Shown piece by piece: positions 9,111-57,952 of a stretch of DNA of 64,000 nucleotides. Both the position numbers and the translations under genes were made by a program. Origin of the DNA: Candidatus Undinarchaeota archaeon (GTDB lineage: Archaea > Undinarchaeota > Undinarchaeia > Undinarchaeales > UBA543); contig CAZMMZ010000007.1 of the NCBI GenBank assembly GCA_964567575.1, positions 2,090-66,089 of the forward strand. The letters run 5' to 3'. The notes under the pieces are model-generated. The model was not told where the DNA came from. It was given only the letters and a program-made list of their open reading frames with translations, and ran no database searches. The first letter of the stretch is position 1, and each line of letters opens with the position of its first letter.

Positions 9111-9508
9111 ATAATGTACCACGCTTTTGGAGAGAAATACCGCAACGGTATAATTTCATTGGAAATAAATGCAAAGGTTGCGATTGGATTAATTTCCCTC
9201 CAAGAAGTATTTGCAAAAAATGCGGATCATCAGAATTTGAGCGATTTGATTTGAAAGGAGAAGGTAAGGTTATTACCTACTCTGTAATTAGGGCGGCGCC
9301 TCCTGGTTTCGATAACTTAGTTCCTTATGTTGTTGCTATAATTTGTCTTAATGATGGTCCACGAATCACTTCGCAAATTGTAGATTGCGATCCAGAAGAA
9401 ATTGAAATAGGAAAAAAAGTTAAAGTATGCTTCAGAAAGATTGTTGAGGACGGAAAAGCTGGTGCAATTTCGTATGGATATAAATTCAGGTTATTAGATG
9501 AACAGTGA
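9107..9508 (+). CDS. DUF35 OB-fold/zinc-ribbon protein (thiolase-HMGCS scaffold subunit)
   Basis: 133 aa. CxxC..CxxC rubredoxin-like ribbon (CKGCDW..CKKCGS) followed by an OB fold. The position between thiolase and HMGR matches the known archaeal thiolase/HMGCS/DUF35 complex. Confidence 0.85.
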   Translation: MNNVPRFWREIPQRYNFIGNKCKGCDWINFPPRSICKKCGSSEFERFDLKGEGKVITYSVIRAAPPGFDNLVPYVVAIICLNDGPRITSQIVDCDPEEIEIGKKVKVCFRKIVEDGKAGAISYGYKFRLLDEQ

Positions 9509-10697
9509 ACCAATTTCTAATCAGGGCTTCGCGAGTAAAACGAGCGAATGCCCTCGGCCATCGTCCGCGGCCAGGCGGACTTCACGAGTTTCCAAATTTT
9601 ATGAGCGCTCAATTGAAGAGCGACTTGAATTTGTTAAAGAATTCGCAGATTTATCTGATGAAGAAATCAATTTATTGAAATCTAGCCCTGATCAGAACAC
9701 ATCTGACAAAATAATTGAGAATGTTATAGGGAATTATTCACTTCCAATTGGAATTGCAGTGAATTTCCAAATTAATGATAAAGATTATTTGATTCCAATG
9801 GTTTTAGAGGAGCCATCAGTTGTTGCAGCTGCTTCAAATGCTGCGAAACTCGCTCGAGAGTGTGGTGGGTTCACTACATCAGCTGATGATCCAGTGATGA
9901 TTGGGCAGATTCACGTTTTCGATAGCAAGCACCCAAATGTAGTGCAACACATTTTAGCAAAAAAAGAAGAGTTACTTTCTGTTGCAAATTCAAAAGATCC
10001 AATGATGATTGAACGCGGAGGTGGTGCAAAAGATTTGGATGTGAAAATTATTAATGATAATCATATTCGCATACATCTTTATGTTGATTGTCGCGATGCA
10101 ATGGGTGCAAATGCAGTAAATACCATGGTTGAAGCAATTGCGCCATTAATTACTGATGAAATCGGGGGGAAAGCAGTTCTTAAGATTATTTCTAATATGG
10201 CAGATCGTAGACTTGTACGTGCAGAATGCACATTCAGTAGAGATCTTCTTGGAGATGATACAATTGATCTTATTCACAAGGGTCAATTAGCTGCTGAAGC
10301 AGATTCTTATCGCGCAGCAACACATAACAAAGGAATTATGAATGCAATCTCAGCAATTTGCGTAGCAACTGGAAATGATTGGCGCGCAGTTGAGGCAGGG
10401 GCTCACGCTTTTGCCGGGCGCGGCGAAGGATATAATCCTCTTACAAAATATCAAATATTAAATCATGGTGATTTACTTGCAAGCATTGAGCTTCCACTTG
10501 CTGTTGCAACTGTTGGCGGCTCAACAAAACTTCCACAGGCGCGAGTGAATCAAAAAATTATTGGTGCGCAAACTTCACAAGAACTTGCTCAGGTAATGGC
10601 TGCAGCAGGATTGGCGCAAAACTTCGCAGCTCTGAAAGCAATTACAACAGAAGGAATACAGAAAGGGCATATGCGATTGCACGAGCGGAAAAACTAA
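9498..10697 (+). CDS. hmgA: HMG-CoA reductase, class II, with an unusual about 30-aa N-terminal leader encoded by a GC-rich repeat element
   Basis: ENVIGNYSLPIGIAVNF, LEEPSVVAAASNAAKLAR and DAMGANAVNTMVEAIAPLI are class II (P. mevalonii / S. aureus type) motifs. The only ATG/GTG/TTG upstream of the conserved FYERSIEERL region is ATG 9498, so the ORF reads through element copy C. Confidence 0.9.
   Translation: MNSEPISNQGFASKTSECPRPSSAARRTSRVSKFYERSIEERLEFVKEFADLSDEEINLLKSSPDQNTSDKIIENVIGNYSLPIGIAVNFQINDKDYLIPMVLEEPSVVAAASNAAKLARECGGFTTSADDPVMIGQIHVFDSKHPNVVQHILAKKEELLSVANSKDPMMIERGGGAKDLDVKIINDNHIRIHLYVDCRDAMGANAVNTMVEAIAPLITDEIGGKAVLKIISNMADRRLVRAECTFSRDLLGDDTIDLIHKGQLAAEADSYRAATHNKGIMNAISAICVATGNDWRAVEAGAHAFAGRGEGYNPLTKYQILNHGDLLASIELPLAVATVGGSTKLPQARVNQKIIGAQTSQELAQVMAAAGLAQNFAALKAITTEGIQKGHMRLHERKN
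9506..9580 (+). repeat. GC-rich two-hairpin element, copy C (inside the hmgA 5' end)
   Basis: TGAACCAATTTCTAATC / AGGGC-TTCGC..GCGAA-T-GCCCT / CGGCCATC / GTCCGC-GGCCAG-GCGGAC. The core is near-identical to copies A and B. Its first 3 nt are the DUF35 stop codon. Confidence 0.8.
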
Positions 10698-11261: not shown

Positions 11262-11368
11262 GTTATGCTGCGGCATAGTGGTGTGAGGTTAACCTCACAC
11301 TCTGAAAGGATTCAGAGGCCATCCGCCCTGCATTCGCTTCGCGAAGCAGGTCAATTGAAATTTGGTAA
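11262..11368 (-). ncRNA. Candidate structured RNA / divergent enlarged member (copy D) of the GC-rich hairpin family
   Basis: Minus-strand reading: TTACCAAATTTCAATTGA / CCTGC-TTCGC-GAA-GCGAA-T-GCAGG, then GCGG..CCGC enclosing two perfect hairpins (CTCTGA/TCAGAG; TGTGAGG-TTAA-CCTCACA). It shares the leader and the hairpin-1 architecture with copies A-C, with compensatory changes. It lies between convergent genes. The strand is inferred only from similarity to A-C. Confidence 0.45.
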
Positions 11369-42263: not shown

Positions 42264-42908
42264 TTATTTATTGCAAACTTCACTTAGTTTTTCGTAAGAT
42301 CTGTTTATACTATTCAAAGCATCTACTAAATGTGGCATGTACTTGAATCCTGGTGTTGCTCCGAAATCTGAATAAATCAAAATGTAATGAAGTTTAAGCA
42401 ATCTTTCTGTTTCTATTTCTTCAACAGCTTGTTCTAATGTTACTGGTGCTTTTATTTTCAGTCCGCCGCCTTCTAATCCTTTTGACAGGCGCGCTAAAAG
42501 ATCATGAGTTTCAGCTAGTTTTAGAATGTCATGTATTTCCTCTTCAGAATATCCCATTTTTTCAACATGCTTCTGTGCGAGTTCTGCTGATTTGAATCTG
42601 TGGTTCGTATCCAAAGCATCAATTCCTTTTCCTATATCATGATAAAGTGTACCGCATCTCAAGATTTCTTTATCGTGTTCATTCAAATCTCTTGTATCCA
42701 TAACTGCTCCTTTATCCTTTACTTCACCAAGCAGTCCCATAACATTAAAAGTGTGATCAAGCGGGTCTATATCTTCATGCGGTTCAGATTGTTTAATCCC
42801 TTTCATTACAAGCATTTCTTCAGGAAGATTCTCTTTAATCTTATCAAAATTATTTTTGAAAATTAATTCATTACCTTTCAAAAGTTCTCGTAATATTTTG
42901 TAATCCAT
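42264..42908 (-). CDS. HD-domain phosphohydrolase
   Basis: LYHDIGKG motif. I place the start at ATG 42908 (MDYKILREL). The track's longer ORF (to 42974) starts at an ATG inside hairpin 1 of repeat copy A. Confidence 0.7.
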   Translation of the reverse strand: MDYKILRELLKGNELIFKNNFDKIKENLPEEMLVMKGIKQSEPHEDIDPLDHTFNVMGLLGEVKDKGAVMDTRDLNEHDKEILRCGTLYHDIGKGIDALDTNHRFKSAELAQKHVEKMGYSEEEIHDILKLAETHDLLARLSKGLEGGGLKIKAPVTLEQAVEEIETERLLKLHYILIYSDFGATPGFKYMPHLVDALNSINRSYEKLSEVCNK

Positions 42909-42932
42909 TTTGAAATTAGTAGCCCCGAGCAG
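42909..42932 (-). repeat. Second copy of the tRNA-Gln 3' end (tRNA nt 61-73 plus trailer)
   Basis: 42915-42932 is an exact 18-nt copy of 43033-43050 (attagtagccccgagcag). Similarity extends to 24 nt with 2 mismatches. Confidence 0.9.
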
Positions 42933-43011
42933 TTCCGAACGTCCGCCTTGCCGCGGACAATGGCATGAGGGCATTCGCCTACGGGCGAAGCCCTGGTTTG
43001 AAATTGGTTCA
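42933..43011 (-). repeat. GC-rich two-hairpin element, copy A (downstream of tRNA-Gln)
   Basis: Minus strand: TGAACCAATTTCAAACC / AGGGC-TTCGCC-CGTA-GGCGAA-T-GCCCT / CATGCCATT / GTCCGC-GGCAAG-GCGGAC / GTTCGGAA. Confidence 0.85.
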
Positions 43012-43037
43012 GATCTGTCTAAGTTATTTGTGATTAG

Positions 43038-43110
43038 TAGCCCCGAGCAGATTCGAACTGCTGTCCCAAGCTCCAGGGGCTCGGATGATTGACCACTACA
43101 CCACGGGGCT
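43038..43110 (-). tRNA. tRNA-Gln (CUG), no encoded CCA, apparent C at position 33
   Basis: Hand-folded: AGCCCCG-TG-GTGT..-CGAGC CCCTGGA GCTTG-GGAC-AGCAG TTCGAAT CTGCT-CGGGGCT-A. The acceptor and D region match archaeal tRNA-Gln. Confidence 0.8.
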
Positions 43111-43151
43111 ATCGCTGGTTTTTGATAACTATATCTCTTTATAATTGTTTC

Positions 43152-54412: not shown

Positions 54413-54489
54413 TGGCAGGCCCGCCGAGATTTGAACTCGGGACTGCGGCTCCGCAAGCCACCATGATATCCAAGCTACACCACGGGCCT
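54413..54489 (-). tRNA. tRNA-Arg (GCG), CCA encoded
   Basis: Hand-folded: AGGCCCG-TG-GTGT..-GTGGC TTGCGGA GCCGC-AGTC-CCGAG TTCAAAT CTCGG-CGGGCCT-G-CCA. Confidence 0.88.
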
Positions 54490-54534
54490 AATTTAGCTTT
54501 AGAATTCTAATTCTATGTCTTTATATTATTACCG

Positions 54535-55071
54535 TTATACTACCCTAAGCCAGTTTATGAAAAGGTATGGGAATTTGCTAAGTGCAAACCATGCGAGAGT
54601 CATGTAAAATGTTCCCATTATAATATACTTTATTGGATTTTCATGAAATGTGAAAAATCTGCTGATTTCCCTGAAAACTTCTGCTAATATAAATATGACA
54701 ATTCCCCAAACCAAGAAATTACTAAGTGTTAAAAAACTGGCAAAAATCGCTATAAAGATCATGTGAATCATATCCATCCCAACTAAAATCGGGTTGTAGA
54801 TTCCTATTTTTGCACTTAATATCTTTGATGGCCATGTTGATAATATTGCTACTAATATTGCTATCCACGGTCCATAAATTATTGCCAAGAATAATATCAA
54901 AATGCTGTGTACTTCAAGATTCACTGTGTGATATACTAAATTTGATCTGCTGAGAATACAAAGAACTATTGTCCAAATTAGCATCCTTGAAGCGCCTGGA
55001 AGAACAATTGGTGCGAGAACGAGAATTAAGACTAGCGACATCACTCCCATGAAATATTTTTTTATATCCAC
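54535..55071 (-). CDS. Multi-TM membrane protein (family member P3)
   Basis: 178 aa, 5-6 TM segments. VNLEVHS..IIYGP pattern. Confidence 0.55.
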   Translation of the reverse strand: MDIKKYFMGVMSLVLILVLAPIVLPGASRMLIWTIVLCILSRSNLVYHTVNLEVHSILILFLAIIYGPWIAILVAILSTWPSKILSAKIGIYNPILVGMDMIHMIFIAIFASFLTLSNFLVWGIVIFILAEVFREISRFFTFHENPIKYIIMGTFYMTLAWFALSKFPYLFINWLRVV

Positions 55072-55138
55072 ACTAATCCCCTCTCTTGTTTGCTATTACT
55101 ACATTTAGCCGTTTATTAATTTTTGTATTAAAGTAAAA

Positions 55139-55154
55139 AAGCACCACCGGAGAG
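55139..55154 (-). repeat. Second copy of the tRNA-Arg(CCU) 3' end (tRNA nt 61-73 plus trailer)
   Basis: A 16-nt exact copy of 55229-55244 (aagcaccaccggagag). The adjoining AT-rich 15-17 nt (55126-55140 vs 55214-55230) are also similar. Confidence 0.9.
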
Positions 55155-55214
55155 TTCCGAACGTCCGCCTGGCCGCGGACAATGGCCAAGGGCATTCGAC
55201 TTCGTCGAAGCCCT
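55155..55214 (-). repeat. GC-rich two-hairpin element, copy B (downstream of tRNA-Arg CCU)
   Basis: Minus strand: AGGGC-TTCGAC-GAA-GTCGAA-T-GCCCT / TGGCCATT / GTCCGC-GGCCAG-GCGGAC / GTTCGGAA. Confidence 0.85.
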
Positions 55215-55231
55215 ATTAAAAATGTAAGAAG

Positions 55232-55306
55232 CACCACCGGAGAGATTTGAACTCTCGACTTTTTCCTTAGGAGGGAAACGCCTTATCCAGACTAGGCTAC
55301 GGTGGT
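55232..55306 (-). tRNA. tRNA-Arg (CCU), no encoded CCA
   Basis: Hand-folded: ACCACCG-TA-GCCT AGTCTGGATA AGGC-G-TTTCC CTCCTAA GGAAA-AAGTC-GAGAG TTCAAAT CTCTC-CGGTGGT-G. Confidence 0.88.
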
Positions 55307-55316
55307 ATTTTGAAAT

Positions 55317-57059
55317 TTACATCCTGTCCGGGACTTCGATTCCAAGAAGATACAAGCATTTCTTTAATGTTTTAAATGTTGCGTTAACCAATCCCAACCG
55401 AGCGTCTCTTACTTCAGTGTCTTCAGCATCTAAAACAGGATTTGTGGTGTAAAATGAGCTAAACTTGTCTGCCAATGCGTAAGCATAATTAGCAATAATA
55501 TGTGGTTGATAAGTTTCTGCGGATTCTGCTATAACACTTGGAAGTTTTCCAATTTGTTTTATTAATCTCTGTTCATCTTTATTATTCAAATGTTTGAATT
55601 TAATACTAGCAAGTGCTGGTTTCTTTTTTGCTTTTTCCAAAATTCTTTTTGCCCTAACTGCAGCGTATTGAATGTAAGGTCCAGTTTCTCCTTCAAATTC
55701 CAATGCAGTATCCCAGTCAAAGAAAATTGTTTTATTATTTCCAACATTTAGCATACTAAATTTCATAGCTGCAATTGTTATTTTCATTGCAAGAGCTCTC
55801 TGTGTTTTTTGATCAAGTTCTGGATTTCTTTGAATAATTTCACCCATTGCTTTTTTTAGCATTTCATTTTTTAATTCTGAATAAAGAATTGCAGTTCCTT
55901 CACGCGAAGACATTTTTCCACCTTTCAAACTTACGAGAGCATAAGCCAAATGATAACATTTCTTTGCTTGTTTGAAGCCCATTAATTCAAGGGTTTTGAA
56001 TAATTGCTGAAAGTGAAGTCTTTGTTCAGATCCAACAACATAAACTGAGCGATTAATTTTGTATTTCTTAAATTTCTCTTCAGCTAGTGCAAGATCTTGT
56101 GTTGAATATAAAGTTGTTCCATCAGTTTTCAATAAGAGCCAAACCGGTAGCCCGTGCTTCTTTAGATCAACAATTAATGCTCCTTTACTTTTCTTTGCTA
56201 GTTTCTTTTTTCTAAGTTCTTCAGTTAATTCTCTTCCTCTATCAAGTAAATCACTTTCATAAAAATCAACATCAAAATTTGCACCAAGTTCTTTGTAAAT
56301 TTCTTTAAATTCATCAATACTCCATTTTCTAAATTGTTTCCAAAGATCAACAAGCTCTTTATCGTCTTGAGCTTCAAGGTGTTTCAGAATTTCAGTTACT
56401 TCTTCTTTTTTGTCAGGAGTTTCATTTAGTTTTTGTACAGCTTCTGTGTAAATGCTTCCTATCCAATTTGAAAGATTTCCTTTTGGTTTTTCTCCGTCAT
56501 GGAAATTCTTGTAAGCCCAAATTGTTTTTGCAACATGCATTCCTACATCATTAAATAGATTTGCCTGAACAACATCGTATCCTGCTTCTTTAATAATTCT
56601 TGACAAACTTTCTCCAAGTGTTGTGTTTCTCAAATGTCCAATATGAAAAGCCTTGAGTGGATTAGGTTGACTGTACTCAATCATTATCTTGTCTTTCTTT
56701 TTCTCACCTTTTCCAAATGAATCAGTATTCGCTTCAGTTACAACAGCTTTTGCGAATTCTCCGAATTTGAGGAAGAAATTAACATAAGCTCCTGCAAGTT
56801 TGATTAGAAAAACACTTCGCGGCCTTTTGATTTTTTCAATAATTTCTTCAGCAATTTTGCGAGGACTTACTTTTTTGATTTTGCCAAGTGGGAAAGAAAT
56901 ACTACAAGCCAAATCTCCCATTTTGTAACTTGGGGGTTCGTCAATATGATTTTTTAATTTTATTTTTCCTAGTGGAGTTTTTGCGATTCCTAATTTTGGT
57001 AGAACCTCAGCTATTGCTTTTGTTACATCTTCTTTTGCTTTAATCCATGGATCTTTCAT
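55317..57059 (-). CDS. argS: Arginyl-tRNA synthetase
   Basis: 580 aa. Class I HIGH region (NPLKAFHIGHLRN), KMSSREG, and a C-terminal DALR anticodon-binding domain. Confidence 0.93.
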   Translation of the reverse strand: MKDPWIKAKEDVTKAIAEVLPKLGIAKTPLGKIKLKNHIDEPPSYKMGDLACSISFPLGKIKKVSPRKIAEEIIEKIKRPRSVFLIKLAGAYVNFFLKFGEFAKAVVTEANTDSFGKGEKKKDKIMIEYSQPNPLKAFHIGHLRNTTLGESLSRIIKEAGYDVVQANLFNDVGMHVAKTIWAYKNFHDGEKPKGNLSNWIGSIYTEAVQKLNETPDKKEEVTEILKHLEAQDDKELVDLWKQFRKWSIDEFKEIYKELGANFDVDFYESDLLDRGRELTEELRKKKLAKKSKGALIVDLKKHGLPVWLLLKTDGTTLYSTQDLALAEEKFKKYKINRSVYVVGSEQRLHFQQLFKTLELMGFKQAKKCYHLAYALVSLKGGKMSSREGTAILYSELKNEMLKKAMGEIIQRNPELDQKTQRALAMKITIAAMKFSMLNVGNNKTIFFDWDTALEFEGETGPYIQYAAVRAKRILEKAKKKPALASIKFKHLNNKDEQRLIKQIGKLPSVIAESAETYQPHIIANYAYALADKFSSFYTTNPVLDAEDTEVRDARLGLVNATFKTLKKCLYLLGIEVPDRM

Positions 57060-57096
57060 TGTTCACCTGTATGTTTCTGCGGTTTTTAAATGTAAG

Positions 57097-57170
57097 TGGG
57101 CCCGCAGGGATTTGAACCCCAGTTTGGAGGTCCGAAGCCTCCCGTGATATCCAAGCTACACCACGGGCCC
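57097..57170 (-). tRNA. tRNA-Arg (UCG), no encoded CCA
   Basis: Hand-folded: GGGCCCG-TG-GTGT..-GGAGG CTTCGGA CCTCC-AAAC-TGGGG TTCAAAT CCCTG-CGGGCCC-A. Confidence 0.85.
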
Positions 57171-57212
57171 ATTTTAACCTTAAATGTAGGGTATTAGCTT
57201 ATTTAATAATAT

Positions 57213-57225
57213 TGTCATATGTCAC
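57213..57225. promoter_or_regulatory. TGTCATATGTCAC motif, site 3
   Basis: 43-55 nt upstream of the tRNA-Arg(UCG) 5' end, just past the alaX stop. Confidence 0.3.
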
Positions 57226-57228
57226 TTT

Positions 57229-57867
57229 TTAGTGGTCTAGCATAATTTCAATACGTTCTTTGCCTGCACCAATATTTTTCCTCTTAAGCCGGATTTTTCC
57301 AATTTCTCCGGTCCGCTTGACGTGTGTTCCCCCGCAAGGCATTTTCCATTCTCCTAATTCCCACCATCTTTTTCCAGGTTCTTCAGAATCTTCATAAACT
57401 TTTATTTCTAAATCTTGTGCAATTATTTCATCAACTTTTTTTTGTATTTCGTCAAAATAATTTACAACTGATTCTTCCATTTCATAATCAATTCGAGCTT
57501 TTTCTGGATGCATATTGGAACCAATTAGTTTTGACTGTCCACTAATGTCTTTGAAAATGTAATAAATAATATGCGCTGAACTGTGAAGACGCATTAATCT
57601 AAATCTGTTTTCCCAATCCAATTCTACTTTGACAGTGTCGTCTTCTTTAAAATCCGGCGCGCTTTCCAAAGTGTAAACAATATCATCTCCTGTTTTCAAA
57701 GCCTCAGTAATTTGGATTCCAGTAATAGTTCCTTTATCTGATGCCTGTCCACCAGAAAATGCAAACAAAACAGTCTTATCTAAAACAACATTGTTTCCAT
57801 CCAGTTTCTGAACCACAGCATCACATTCTTTCAAATATGGATCTTGCCAAAATAATTTTTCTGTCAT
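57229..57867 (-). CDS. alaX: Alanyl-tRNA editing protein AlaX (SAD-type)
   Basis: 212 aa. HSSAHIIYY (HxxxH) and CGGTHV (CxxxH) zinc motifs of the Ala/Thr-RS second additional domain. Confidence 0.85.
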   Translation of the reverse strand: MTEKLFWQDPYLKECDAVVQKLDGNNVVLDKTVLFAFSGGQASDKGTITGIQITEALKTGDDIVYTLESAPDFKEDDTVKVELDWENRFRLMRLHSSAHIIYYIFKDISGQSKLIGSNMHPEKARIDYEMEESVVNYFDEIQKKVDEIIAQDLEIKVYEDSEEPGKRWWELGEWKMPCGGTHVKRTGEIGKIRLKRKNIGAGKERIEIMLDH

Positions 57868-57874
57868 ATGAATA

Positions 57875-57952
57875 TGGTGGGCCTGAAGGGATTTGAACCC
57901 TTGATCTACAGCTTAGAAGGCTGTCGCCTTATCCAGACTAGGCTACAGGCCC
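57875..57952 (-). tRNA. tRNA-Arg (UCU), CCA encoded
   Basis: Hand-folded: GGGCCTG-TA-GCCT AGTCTGGATA AGGC-G-ACAGC CTTCTAA GCTGT-AGATC-AAGGG TTCAAAT CCCTT-CAGGCCC-A-CCA. Confidence 0.9.

Follow-up and report, generated by a model that had tools for sequence, protein, structure and literature searches.

The 79-nt element that follows the tRNA-Gln(CTG) gene in a 64,000-nt stretch of a Candidatus Undinarchaeota genome (contig CAZMMZ010000007.1; the whole stretch is called the window here, and positions are those of the window) is probably one copy of a non-autonomous, structure-dependent mobile repeat that generates long target duplications of variable length. It is termed copy A of the double-hairpin/pseudoknot element, our name for a family of small, non-coding, GC-rich repeats. 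New copies of this family arise at loci that are empty in relatives, usually in sense orientation and right at the 3′ terminus of a transcription unit. The tRNA fragment that lies behind copy A (42932–42909) would then be the inert right half of the target duplication. In the following, G000 denotes this genome (a 745-kb assembly of 18 contigs with 34–38% GC), G001 and G002 denote two genomes of the same genus and G004 denotes a genome of another family of the same order; all four are incomplete metagenome bins (78–82% complete).

The locus lies on the minus strand, and the order and coordinates of its parts that the initial annotation had read from the letters alone proved correct to the base. 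An intact, full-length tRNA-Gln(CTG) gene (43110 to 43038; ARAGORN; 49.2 bits with the Rfam tRNA model) is followed by an AT-rich trailer of 26 nt (43037 to 43012) and by the GC-rich copy A (43011 to 42933), which ends in GTTCGGAA. Directly behind it stands an exact 18-nt repeat, in which 42932 to 42915 is identical to 43050 to 43033, that is, to tRNA-Gln positions 61–73 plus CTAAT. The left copy of this direct repeat (43033–43050), identified from the sequence and by a repeat search, consists of tRNA positions 61–73 and five trailer nucleotides and is the functional one, and the right copy (42909–42932) is read as a non-functional footprint. The proposed extension of the repeat to 24 nt with two mismatches and the double occurrence of AATTTCAAA, at 43005–42997 and again at 42917–42909, are likewise present in the sequence, and the repeat reaches 26 nt with two mismatches from G53 if GTTCGGAA is counted against the T-loop. 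Its score of 20 compares with a 99th percentile of 11 for flanks aligned with mismatched flank pairs. The AT-rich spacer between the left repeat copy and the element (43012–43032) is homologous to the spacer of the same locus in G002, as seen in an alignment of G000, G002 and G001. The gene downstream (42264–42908) does encode an HD domain, as had been suggested (Pfam HD, E = 5e-8), and its ATG at 42908 starts 6 nt past the exact 18-nt repeat. Because no TATA-like box is present between the tRNA-Gln and HD genes, the HD gene is probably co-transcribed from the tRNA-Gln promoter. Two further observations concern this locus. An ATG in hairpin 1 of the element (42974) is in frame with the HD ATG, with 42909–42974 (minus strand) open; a start there would add 22 codons to the HD gene, running through hairpin 2, the tail and the tRNA repeat, and there is no sign of its use. 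The tRNA-Gln gene is absent from the six tRNAs listed by Rfam at the gathering threshold for the full window and scores 49.2 bits when 300 nt are scanned alone; this is a filter effect and the tRNA is not defective.

Copy A is composed of a conserved single-stranded 5′ motif (GAACCAATTTCAAA…, 42995–43011), which in alignments resembles a tRNA NCCA end with its trailer, and two hairpins defined by the consensus fold. Hairpin 1 (42968–42994) has an 11-bp stem, interrupted by a single bulged base, and a variable apical loop, and hairpin 2 (42941–42958) has a 6-bp stem. The linker between them (42959–42967) contains TGCC (42965–42962), which forms a pseudoknot by pairing with GGCA (42952–42949) in the hairpin 2 loop, and the T-loop-like tail GTTCGGAA (42933–42940) is able to pair with TCTGAAC at the 5′ end. 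A covariance model was built from five copies and the pairs of hairpin 1 (11 bp), hairpin 2 (6 bp) and the pseudoknot were counted in 29 copies aligned to it. Standard pairs occupy 96.8% of the cells, compared with 37–49% when the partners are slid by 1–3 columns, and 16 of the 21 pairs have changed on both sides (eight of 11 in hairpin 1), although the counts for hairpins 1 and 2 lean towards the model because the copies were fitted to it. The pseudoknot, which was spotted by eye, provides an independent check, since it was not part of the search model: all four of its pairs covary (TGCC/GGCA, GGCC/GGCC, CGCC/GGCG and GCTC/GAGC) and 98.9% of its cells are paired. A helix closing the whole element is marginal, with a score of at least 5 in 43% of 23 copies against 24% in the null; in the tRNA-linked subfamily, 5′ (C/T)(C/T)GAAC is able to pair with 3′ GTTCGG. 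This fold has no counterpart in Rfam: with 42850–43150 scanned alone, at E values up to 10, only the tRNA was matched, and a scan of the full window gave nothing besides tRNAs at the gathering score.

When the covariance model was run on G000, its relatives and the genomes of the order, 12–13 copies were found in G000, eight in G001, 13 in G002 and 28 in G004. The copies are mutually related and some are orthologous, so these counts overstate their independence. Among 36 other relatives nothing convincing was found (one weak match in G037, E = 6e-4), and of all 13 genomes scanned for the order Undinarchaeales only four carry the element. Its range is one genus plus a neighbouring family of marine archaea with small genomes. 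When genome and metagenome collections were scanned for the exact pattern of hairpin 2 plus GTTCGG, nearly all matches were chance ones in GC-rich bacteria, and the true ones all belonged to the G002-type locus, in archaeon UBA543 and in two metagenome contigs; viral contigs contained no copy in two pattern scans or with the covariance model. The stretch itself is present, in whole or in part, in 20 marine, seawater or vent DNA runs, and no RNA run is listed.

The copies sit mostly at gene ends. In G000, ten of 12 clear copies are found just behind a same-strand tRNA or no more than 7 nt past the stop codon of a co-oriented gene. Across the four genomes, 61 copies were read in context; 16 lie at most 100 nt downstream of a same-strand tRNA, about 15 different tRNAs being involved, and only three have an antisense tRNA neighbour. 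For at least 16 of 61 copies at an expectation of about 5%, the share of tRNAs among gene ends, the binomial P is 4e-8, with copies that are not fully independent. The orientation evidence uses only the gene calls of G000 and the tRNA calls, and a crude test with open frames of at least 60 codons at small loci did not discriminate. The strict sense orientation, which includes copies on opposite strands 2 kb apart, argues against an effect of the replication strand and points towards transcription or RNA. Genes flanked by pairs of elements are housekeeping genes (ABCE1, HMG-CoA reductase and arginyl-tRNA synthetase). In addition, a G004 copy (L015:1501–1571) lies in frame within the acidic, lysine-rich N-terminal domain of an FtsY-like gene (L015:574–2073, minus strand); it is translated as …ETKIEASPGANASALPPRAGGEPKK…, and a second copy 1 kb away also lies in lysine/glutamate-rich sequence.

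The duplication seen at copy A recurs throughout the family. The 45 nt that follow the end of hairpin 2 were aligned to the 170 nt upstream of each copy, with the flanks of different copies as the null, and 25 of 61 copies exceed the 99th percentile (0.6 expected). In all 25 the right repeat begins 0–9 nt after hairpin 2, and its length ranges from about 9 to 45 nt by this test and is longer by eye. Behind 15 of the 16 tRNA-linked copies stands a copy of the 3′ end of that very tRNA: Gln-CTG, Arg-CCT and Ser-CGA in G000; Gln-TTG, Leu-TAA, Trp, Lys and one more in G002; Leu-GAG in G001; and Glu, Pro (two), Val, Ile and Tyr in G004. Each of these repeats begins within the T-loop or at the first bases of the 3′ strand of the T-stem and ends at a variable distance beyond the tRNA. 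The left junction lies a few bases past the end of the tRNA and the right junction in or just after the T-loop; hence the 3′ strand of the T-stem and acceptor is duplicated as a whole and the tRNA gene stays intact. The second such case in the window, spanning 55306 to 55139 on the minus strand, is tRNA-Arg(CCT) (55232–55306; ARAGORN) with 18 nt of trailer, followed by copy B (55155–55214; hairpin 1, linker, hairpin 2 and tail GTTCGGAA; 75.1 bits with the covariance model) and by a right copy of tRNA positions 61–73 plus 3 nt, exact over 16 nt (55139–55154; repeat search), past which resemblance to the trailer persists for about 31 nt, indels included, and is followed by a T-run. Copy B has no 5′ motif, the trailer of the tRNA occupying its place.

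At protein genes, the last 13–45 nt or more are repeated after the element, for example about 40 nt of a diphthine-synthase-like gene in G004 and the 3′ end of another target gene whose product ends in GGMPGMM. The upstream copy leaves the target gene complete in every case. The initial annotation had regarded duplication and element as coupled; the two are indeed associated, but the association is not obligatory, as many copies after protein genes show no detectable duplication. At another G004 site (L163:1400–1700), the repeat behind the element covers the last 28 codons of a gene but differs from them by many synonymous changes; this downstream copy may be part of a paralogue or of an internal protein repeat rather than a decaying footprint.

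The ends of the element clarify where the junctions lie. The tail reads GTTCGGAA or GTTCGGAG in five copies of the genus, while the T-loops of the adjoining tRNAs read TTCGAAT, TTCAAAT or TTCGAAC, and the repeats after these tails are perfect over 16–21 nt. At the tRNA-Lys of G002 the tail differs from the T-loop at five of seven positions, directly before a perfect repeat of 46 nt, after which a partial second element follows. A perfect repeat beside a divergent tail rules out neutral decay, which would have had to change only the tail bases. The tail GTTCGGAA thus appears either to belong to the element or to have been homogenised between copies by conversion, rather than being a decayed local T-loop, and the true junction in young tRNA copies is at position 60/61. 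The mimicry of a T-loop by the element end that had been noted is therefore a real resemblance, although the tail is identical beside tRNAs with other T-loops. In copies away from tRNAs, the repeat includes the eight bases that follow hairpin 2, and its mismatches are concentrated there. The conserved motif at the 5′ end, (A)ACCAATTTC, shows the same likeness to a tRNA NCCA end with trailer as in copy A, and the CCA of the tRNA itself is in register with the motif in five tRNA-linked copies. Beyond this motif, 28 copies have little in common over 75 nt of upstream sequence, namely a weak 'cagatc/aaacc' signal, and an extra upstream hairpin is found in three of the 28. Both ends of the element resemble generic features of the tRNA 3′ region in permuted order, as expected if short similarity guides both junctions. 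Two other origins of the tRNA fragment were considered and rejected: a repeat derived from mature tRNA, as that of copy A carries genomic trailer and no CCA, and a split or permuted tRNA or a bulge-helix-bulge intron, as a complete tRNA stands upstream and the fragment has no 5′ partner and drifts in relatives (no formal search for the bulge-helix-bulge motif was made).

The initial annotation had proposed looking for empty sites in related genomes, and such orthologous sites were found. In G002, tRNA-Gln(TTG) is followed by an element and a 21-nt repeat and then by tRNA-Leu(TAA), which again is followed by an element and a repeat; in G000 these two tRNA genes are separated by just 7 nt, which contain neither. 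The tRNA-Gln(CTG) of G001 has an ordinary trailer with neither element nor repeat at a locus that is rearranged. The 5′ end of the HMG-CoA reductase gene hmgA (9498–10697, plus strand; Pfam E = 2e-109) contains the third full copy in the window (9507–9588, plus strand), which is read through in frame. The orthologues in G001 and G002 begin MKTSRVSKFY and contain no element; in G000 the native start is lost and the sole open frame crosses the entire element from an upstream ATG, adding about 27 residues. Copies are turning over between species of one genus. The tRNA-Gln(CTG) locus, which was located in the relatives through the upstream Dtd gene (the HD protein as a probe matched nothing in G001, G002 or G004), is also filled in G002. 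Its spacer is homologous to that of G000, which places this insertion before the split of the two species. The G002 element is degenerate and falls below the model threshold, and its right repeat has drifted to 15 of 18 identical positions; the right repeat at the tRNA-Leu of G001 has drifted as well. From this drift, the downstream tRNA fragment is read as a footprint and not as a working part.

How such an element would move can be described only in outline, and our confidence in any particular enzymology is much lower than in the overall reading. The fold would be needed for propagation and may in addition act as an RNA structure in the 3′ untranslated region. The mover would be an enzyme encoded outside these bins, or host replication or repair, and candidate routes are staggered nicks with fill-in or microhomology-guided template switching, with short similarity guiding the element to both junctions. 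Several results weigh against this reading. Profile searches of the four whole genomes gave no match to RVT_1 (three control genomes matched), Phage_integrase (all 14 controls matched; serine recombinases were not searched), Cas1, DDE_Tnp_1 or Y1_Tnp, and only sub-threshold zinc-ribbon matches to TnpB, in bins of the completeness given above. More than half of the 61 copies have no duplication above the 99th percentile and the duplication length is not fixed; clear terminal inverted repeats were not found, as the closing helix barely exceeds its null; several loci consist of tandem flank-plus-element units, so that some apparent target duplications may stem from local duplication and later deletion; and neither an empty allele nor an excision joint was seen at the locus in marine metagenome contigs, in which rare variants are invisible, the contigs of three sequencing runs crossing the tRNA-Gln locus unchanged. 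Control genomes were matched in six of the profile families; Y2_Tnp was matched neither in the four bins nor in the controls. The Phage_integrase family, including Xer-type enzymes, is missing from all four bins, which may be a gap of their approximately 80% completeness and would be unusual if real.

Three readings of the locus had been offered beforehand, and each survives in part. The first, a miniature non-autonomous integrative element mobilised in trans, is right in outline, in that the element belongs to a dispersed family with empty orthologous sites, but its integrase version, with att sites or a CIME, is not supported, given the many targets and the lack of any tyrosine recombinase match in the four bins. 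In the second, the long target duplication (about 9 to 45 nt) remains the best description, but the proposed link to casposons fails for want of Cas1 and of a fixed 14–15 bp length. In the third, a functional RNA module, the element itself may have such a role, with its covarying pseudoknot and its sense placement at gene ends, but the duplicated tRNA 3′ end decays in relatives and looks like a footprint.

Among the alternatives to a mobile repeat with long target duplications, local tandem duplication fares best, although it is rather unlikely. Stable hairpins would stall replication or block flap removal, the unit of gene 3′ end, spacer and element would be doubled in place, and the second element would later be deleted. 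Tandem arrays of flank plus element do exist, at C5:23887 of G000 (where the second unit is internally deleted), at the tRNA-Lys of G002 and at L019, L024, L154 and L161 of G004, and AATTTCAAA, the start of the 5′ motif of the element, follows the right repeat of copy A as a remnant of a second unit would. However, TTTCAAAAT already follows the tRNA at the empty G001 site, which makes the motif native trailer, and copy B sits clean between its repeats with no trace of a second unit. Moreover, duplication in place offers no route to new loci, yet tRNA-Gln(TTG) and tRNA-Leu(TAA) in G002 and hmgA in G000 are filled where relatives are empty.

A SINE-like spread through RNA appears quite improbable. 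A read-through transcript ending at hairpin 2 and the tail would be copied at a nick in the T-loop, and a second staggered nick would give a duplication of variable length. The constant 3′ end, the variable 5′ start with a few 5′-truncated copies (copy B, L156 and L161) and the variable duplications are shared with non-LTR/SINE-type retroelements, as a resemblance only; the strictly sense placement of copies in transcription units, a tail brought along by the element, a repeat that begins sharply at position 61 in the youngest copies and the selection on an RNA-type pseudoknot also fit. Against this, no reverse transcriptase was found in the four incomplete bins, an A-tail is not consistently present, 5′ truncation is rare and the repeat of copy A carries the genomic trailer CTAAT and no post-transcriptional CCA.

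We give equally little credence to a host RNA module at the ends of transcription units, acting as a terminator, processing site or exonuclease barrier, with the repeat perhaps as a part of it and co-transcribed with the tRNA and the HD gene. The covarying hairpins and pseudoknot, the sense orientation directly after stop codons and tRNAs, the likely co-transcription across a promoterless interval (no promoter-like TATA between tRNA-Gln and the HD gene) and the T-run after the repeat of copy B are what such a module would show. Yet the element at tRNA-Gln(CTG) is degenerate and its repeat drifted in G002, G001 and nine other genomes of the order do without it, some copies are embedded in coding regions and in frame with them, the element offers no partner with which the duplicated 3′ strand could pair and Rfam contains no match.

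A remnant of integrase or casposon integration, either attL and attR around a deleted island or a Cas1 duplication at the tRNA 3′ end, is scarcely credible: a direct repeat of the 3′ part of a tRNA is the classic geometry of tRNA-targeting integrases and the repeat here runs from the T-loop region past the tRNA end accordingly, but the same element of about 75 nt is found at about 15 tRNAs and several protein-gene ends, each with its own repeat and with no single att specificity, which together with the lack of a Phage_integrase match in the four bins excludes the integrase form, the lack of a Cas1 match in the same bins and a repeat length that varies widely around no 14–15 bp value exclude the casposon form, and the larger element between two copies for which a search had been proposed was not seen, the one inverted pair, on contig C5, flanking only ABCE1.

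A mobile repeat with long, variable target duplications thus remains the reading that we favour. More tentatively, it may be an undescribed type of archaeal mobile element, an RNA-like pseudoknotted module with no recognisable transposase, integrase or reverse transcriptase that homes to tRNA T-loops and to the last codons of protein genes through the similarity of its ends, protects the host gene by duplicating its 3′ end and perhaps serves as an RNA structure at that end.

The window contains one more, weak and divergent copy (11292–11367, minus strand; 21.6 bits with the covariance model, E = 0.016), which directly follows a co-oriented gene. This copy and another in G000 (C5:55282–55355) share a third, perfectly palindromic hairpin just downstream (GTGAGGTTAACCTCAC; window 11283–11300 and C5:55240–55290), and three copies in G001 and G002 (L023, L028 and L148) have an extra hairpin upstream instead; the element family has modular variants. 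Near copy B, four tRNA-Arg genes (GCG, CCT, TCG and TCT) lie within 3.6 kb (54413–57952, minus strand), and the arginyl-tRNA synthetase gene (55317–57059) lies between them, directly upstream of tRNA-Arg(CCT).

Small symbiotic archaea are thought to carry few mobile elements, and here a structured repeat is turning over in reduced genomes, even inside essential genes. For annotation, its long and variable duplications explain stray tRNA 3′ fragments that could be misread as integration scars or split tRNAs. The covarying pseudoknot, which is not in Rfam, is a candidate new RNA motif, and the way in which the element spreads could bring to light either a novel mobilising activity or a host pathway of repair in which structured DNA or RNA is copied into the ends of genes.

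On comparison with known systems, the element appears to belong to no named family, and its closest analogues are the mitochondrial hairpin repeats, the REP elements and MITEs, and the Rickettsia palindromic elements (RPEs). Integrative elements and casposons that target tRNAs share with it a repeat of the tRNA 3′ part near the T-loop and an intact tRNA gene, but theirs is either brought in by the element itself (attP) or made by Cas1 as a duplication of fixed length, 14–15 bp, whereas here neither enzyme was found, the targets are many and the element measures about 75 nt. Bacterial REP/BIME elements and MITEs are, like it, small, structured, non-autonomous, mostly intergenic, co-transcribed and present in dozens of copies per genome. 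In contrast to them, no Y1 (RAYT) transposase and no partner insertion sequence were found among the families searched, terminal inverted repeats are at most marginal and the duplication length is not fixed. As a MITE, it lacks a target duplication of fixed length (from undetectable to 45 nt by the test), and for an autonomous partner with shared ends the informative families were DDE_Tnp_1 and Y1_Tnp, with no match, and TnpB, with none over the cut-off, in bins that are 78–82% complete. RPEs are also small and structured, have no known transposase and reside in frame in genes, as seen here in HMG-CoA reductase (G000) and FtsY (G004), but there is no sequence relationship and the hosts belong to different domains of life; neither long target duplications nor a preference for tRNA 3′ ends is known from RPEs.

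The GC-rich hairpin repeats of mitochondria (yeast GC clusters, the double-hairpin elements of Allomyces and sponge RHEs) are likewise short, non-coding and dispersed in a compact AT-rich genome, with a copy pattern that differs between close relatives and with copies that are intergenic and sometimes within genes. The corresponding figures here are an element GC content of 48–62% in a genome that is about 91% coding with 34–38% GC, and a patchy presence in four of 13 genomes. The mitochondrial repeats, too, have no known transposase of their own, and it is debated whether they spread through DNA or RNA (PMC2800124, PMC4478555). They are flanked by 2–3 nt repeats (AG, ACT) or by none. The archaeal element differs from them in its long variable duplications, its covarying pseudoknot, its strong sense-strand bias and its preference for tRNA T-loops, and its host is an archaeon and not an organelle; the likeness is one of analogy and not of homology.

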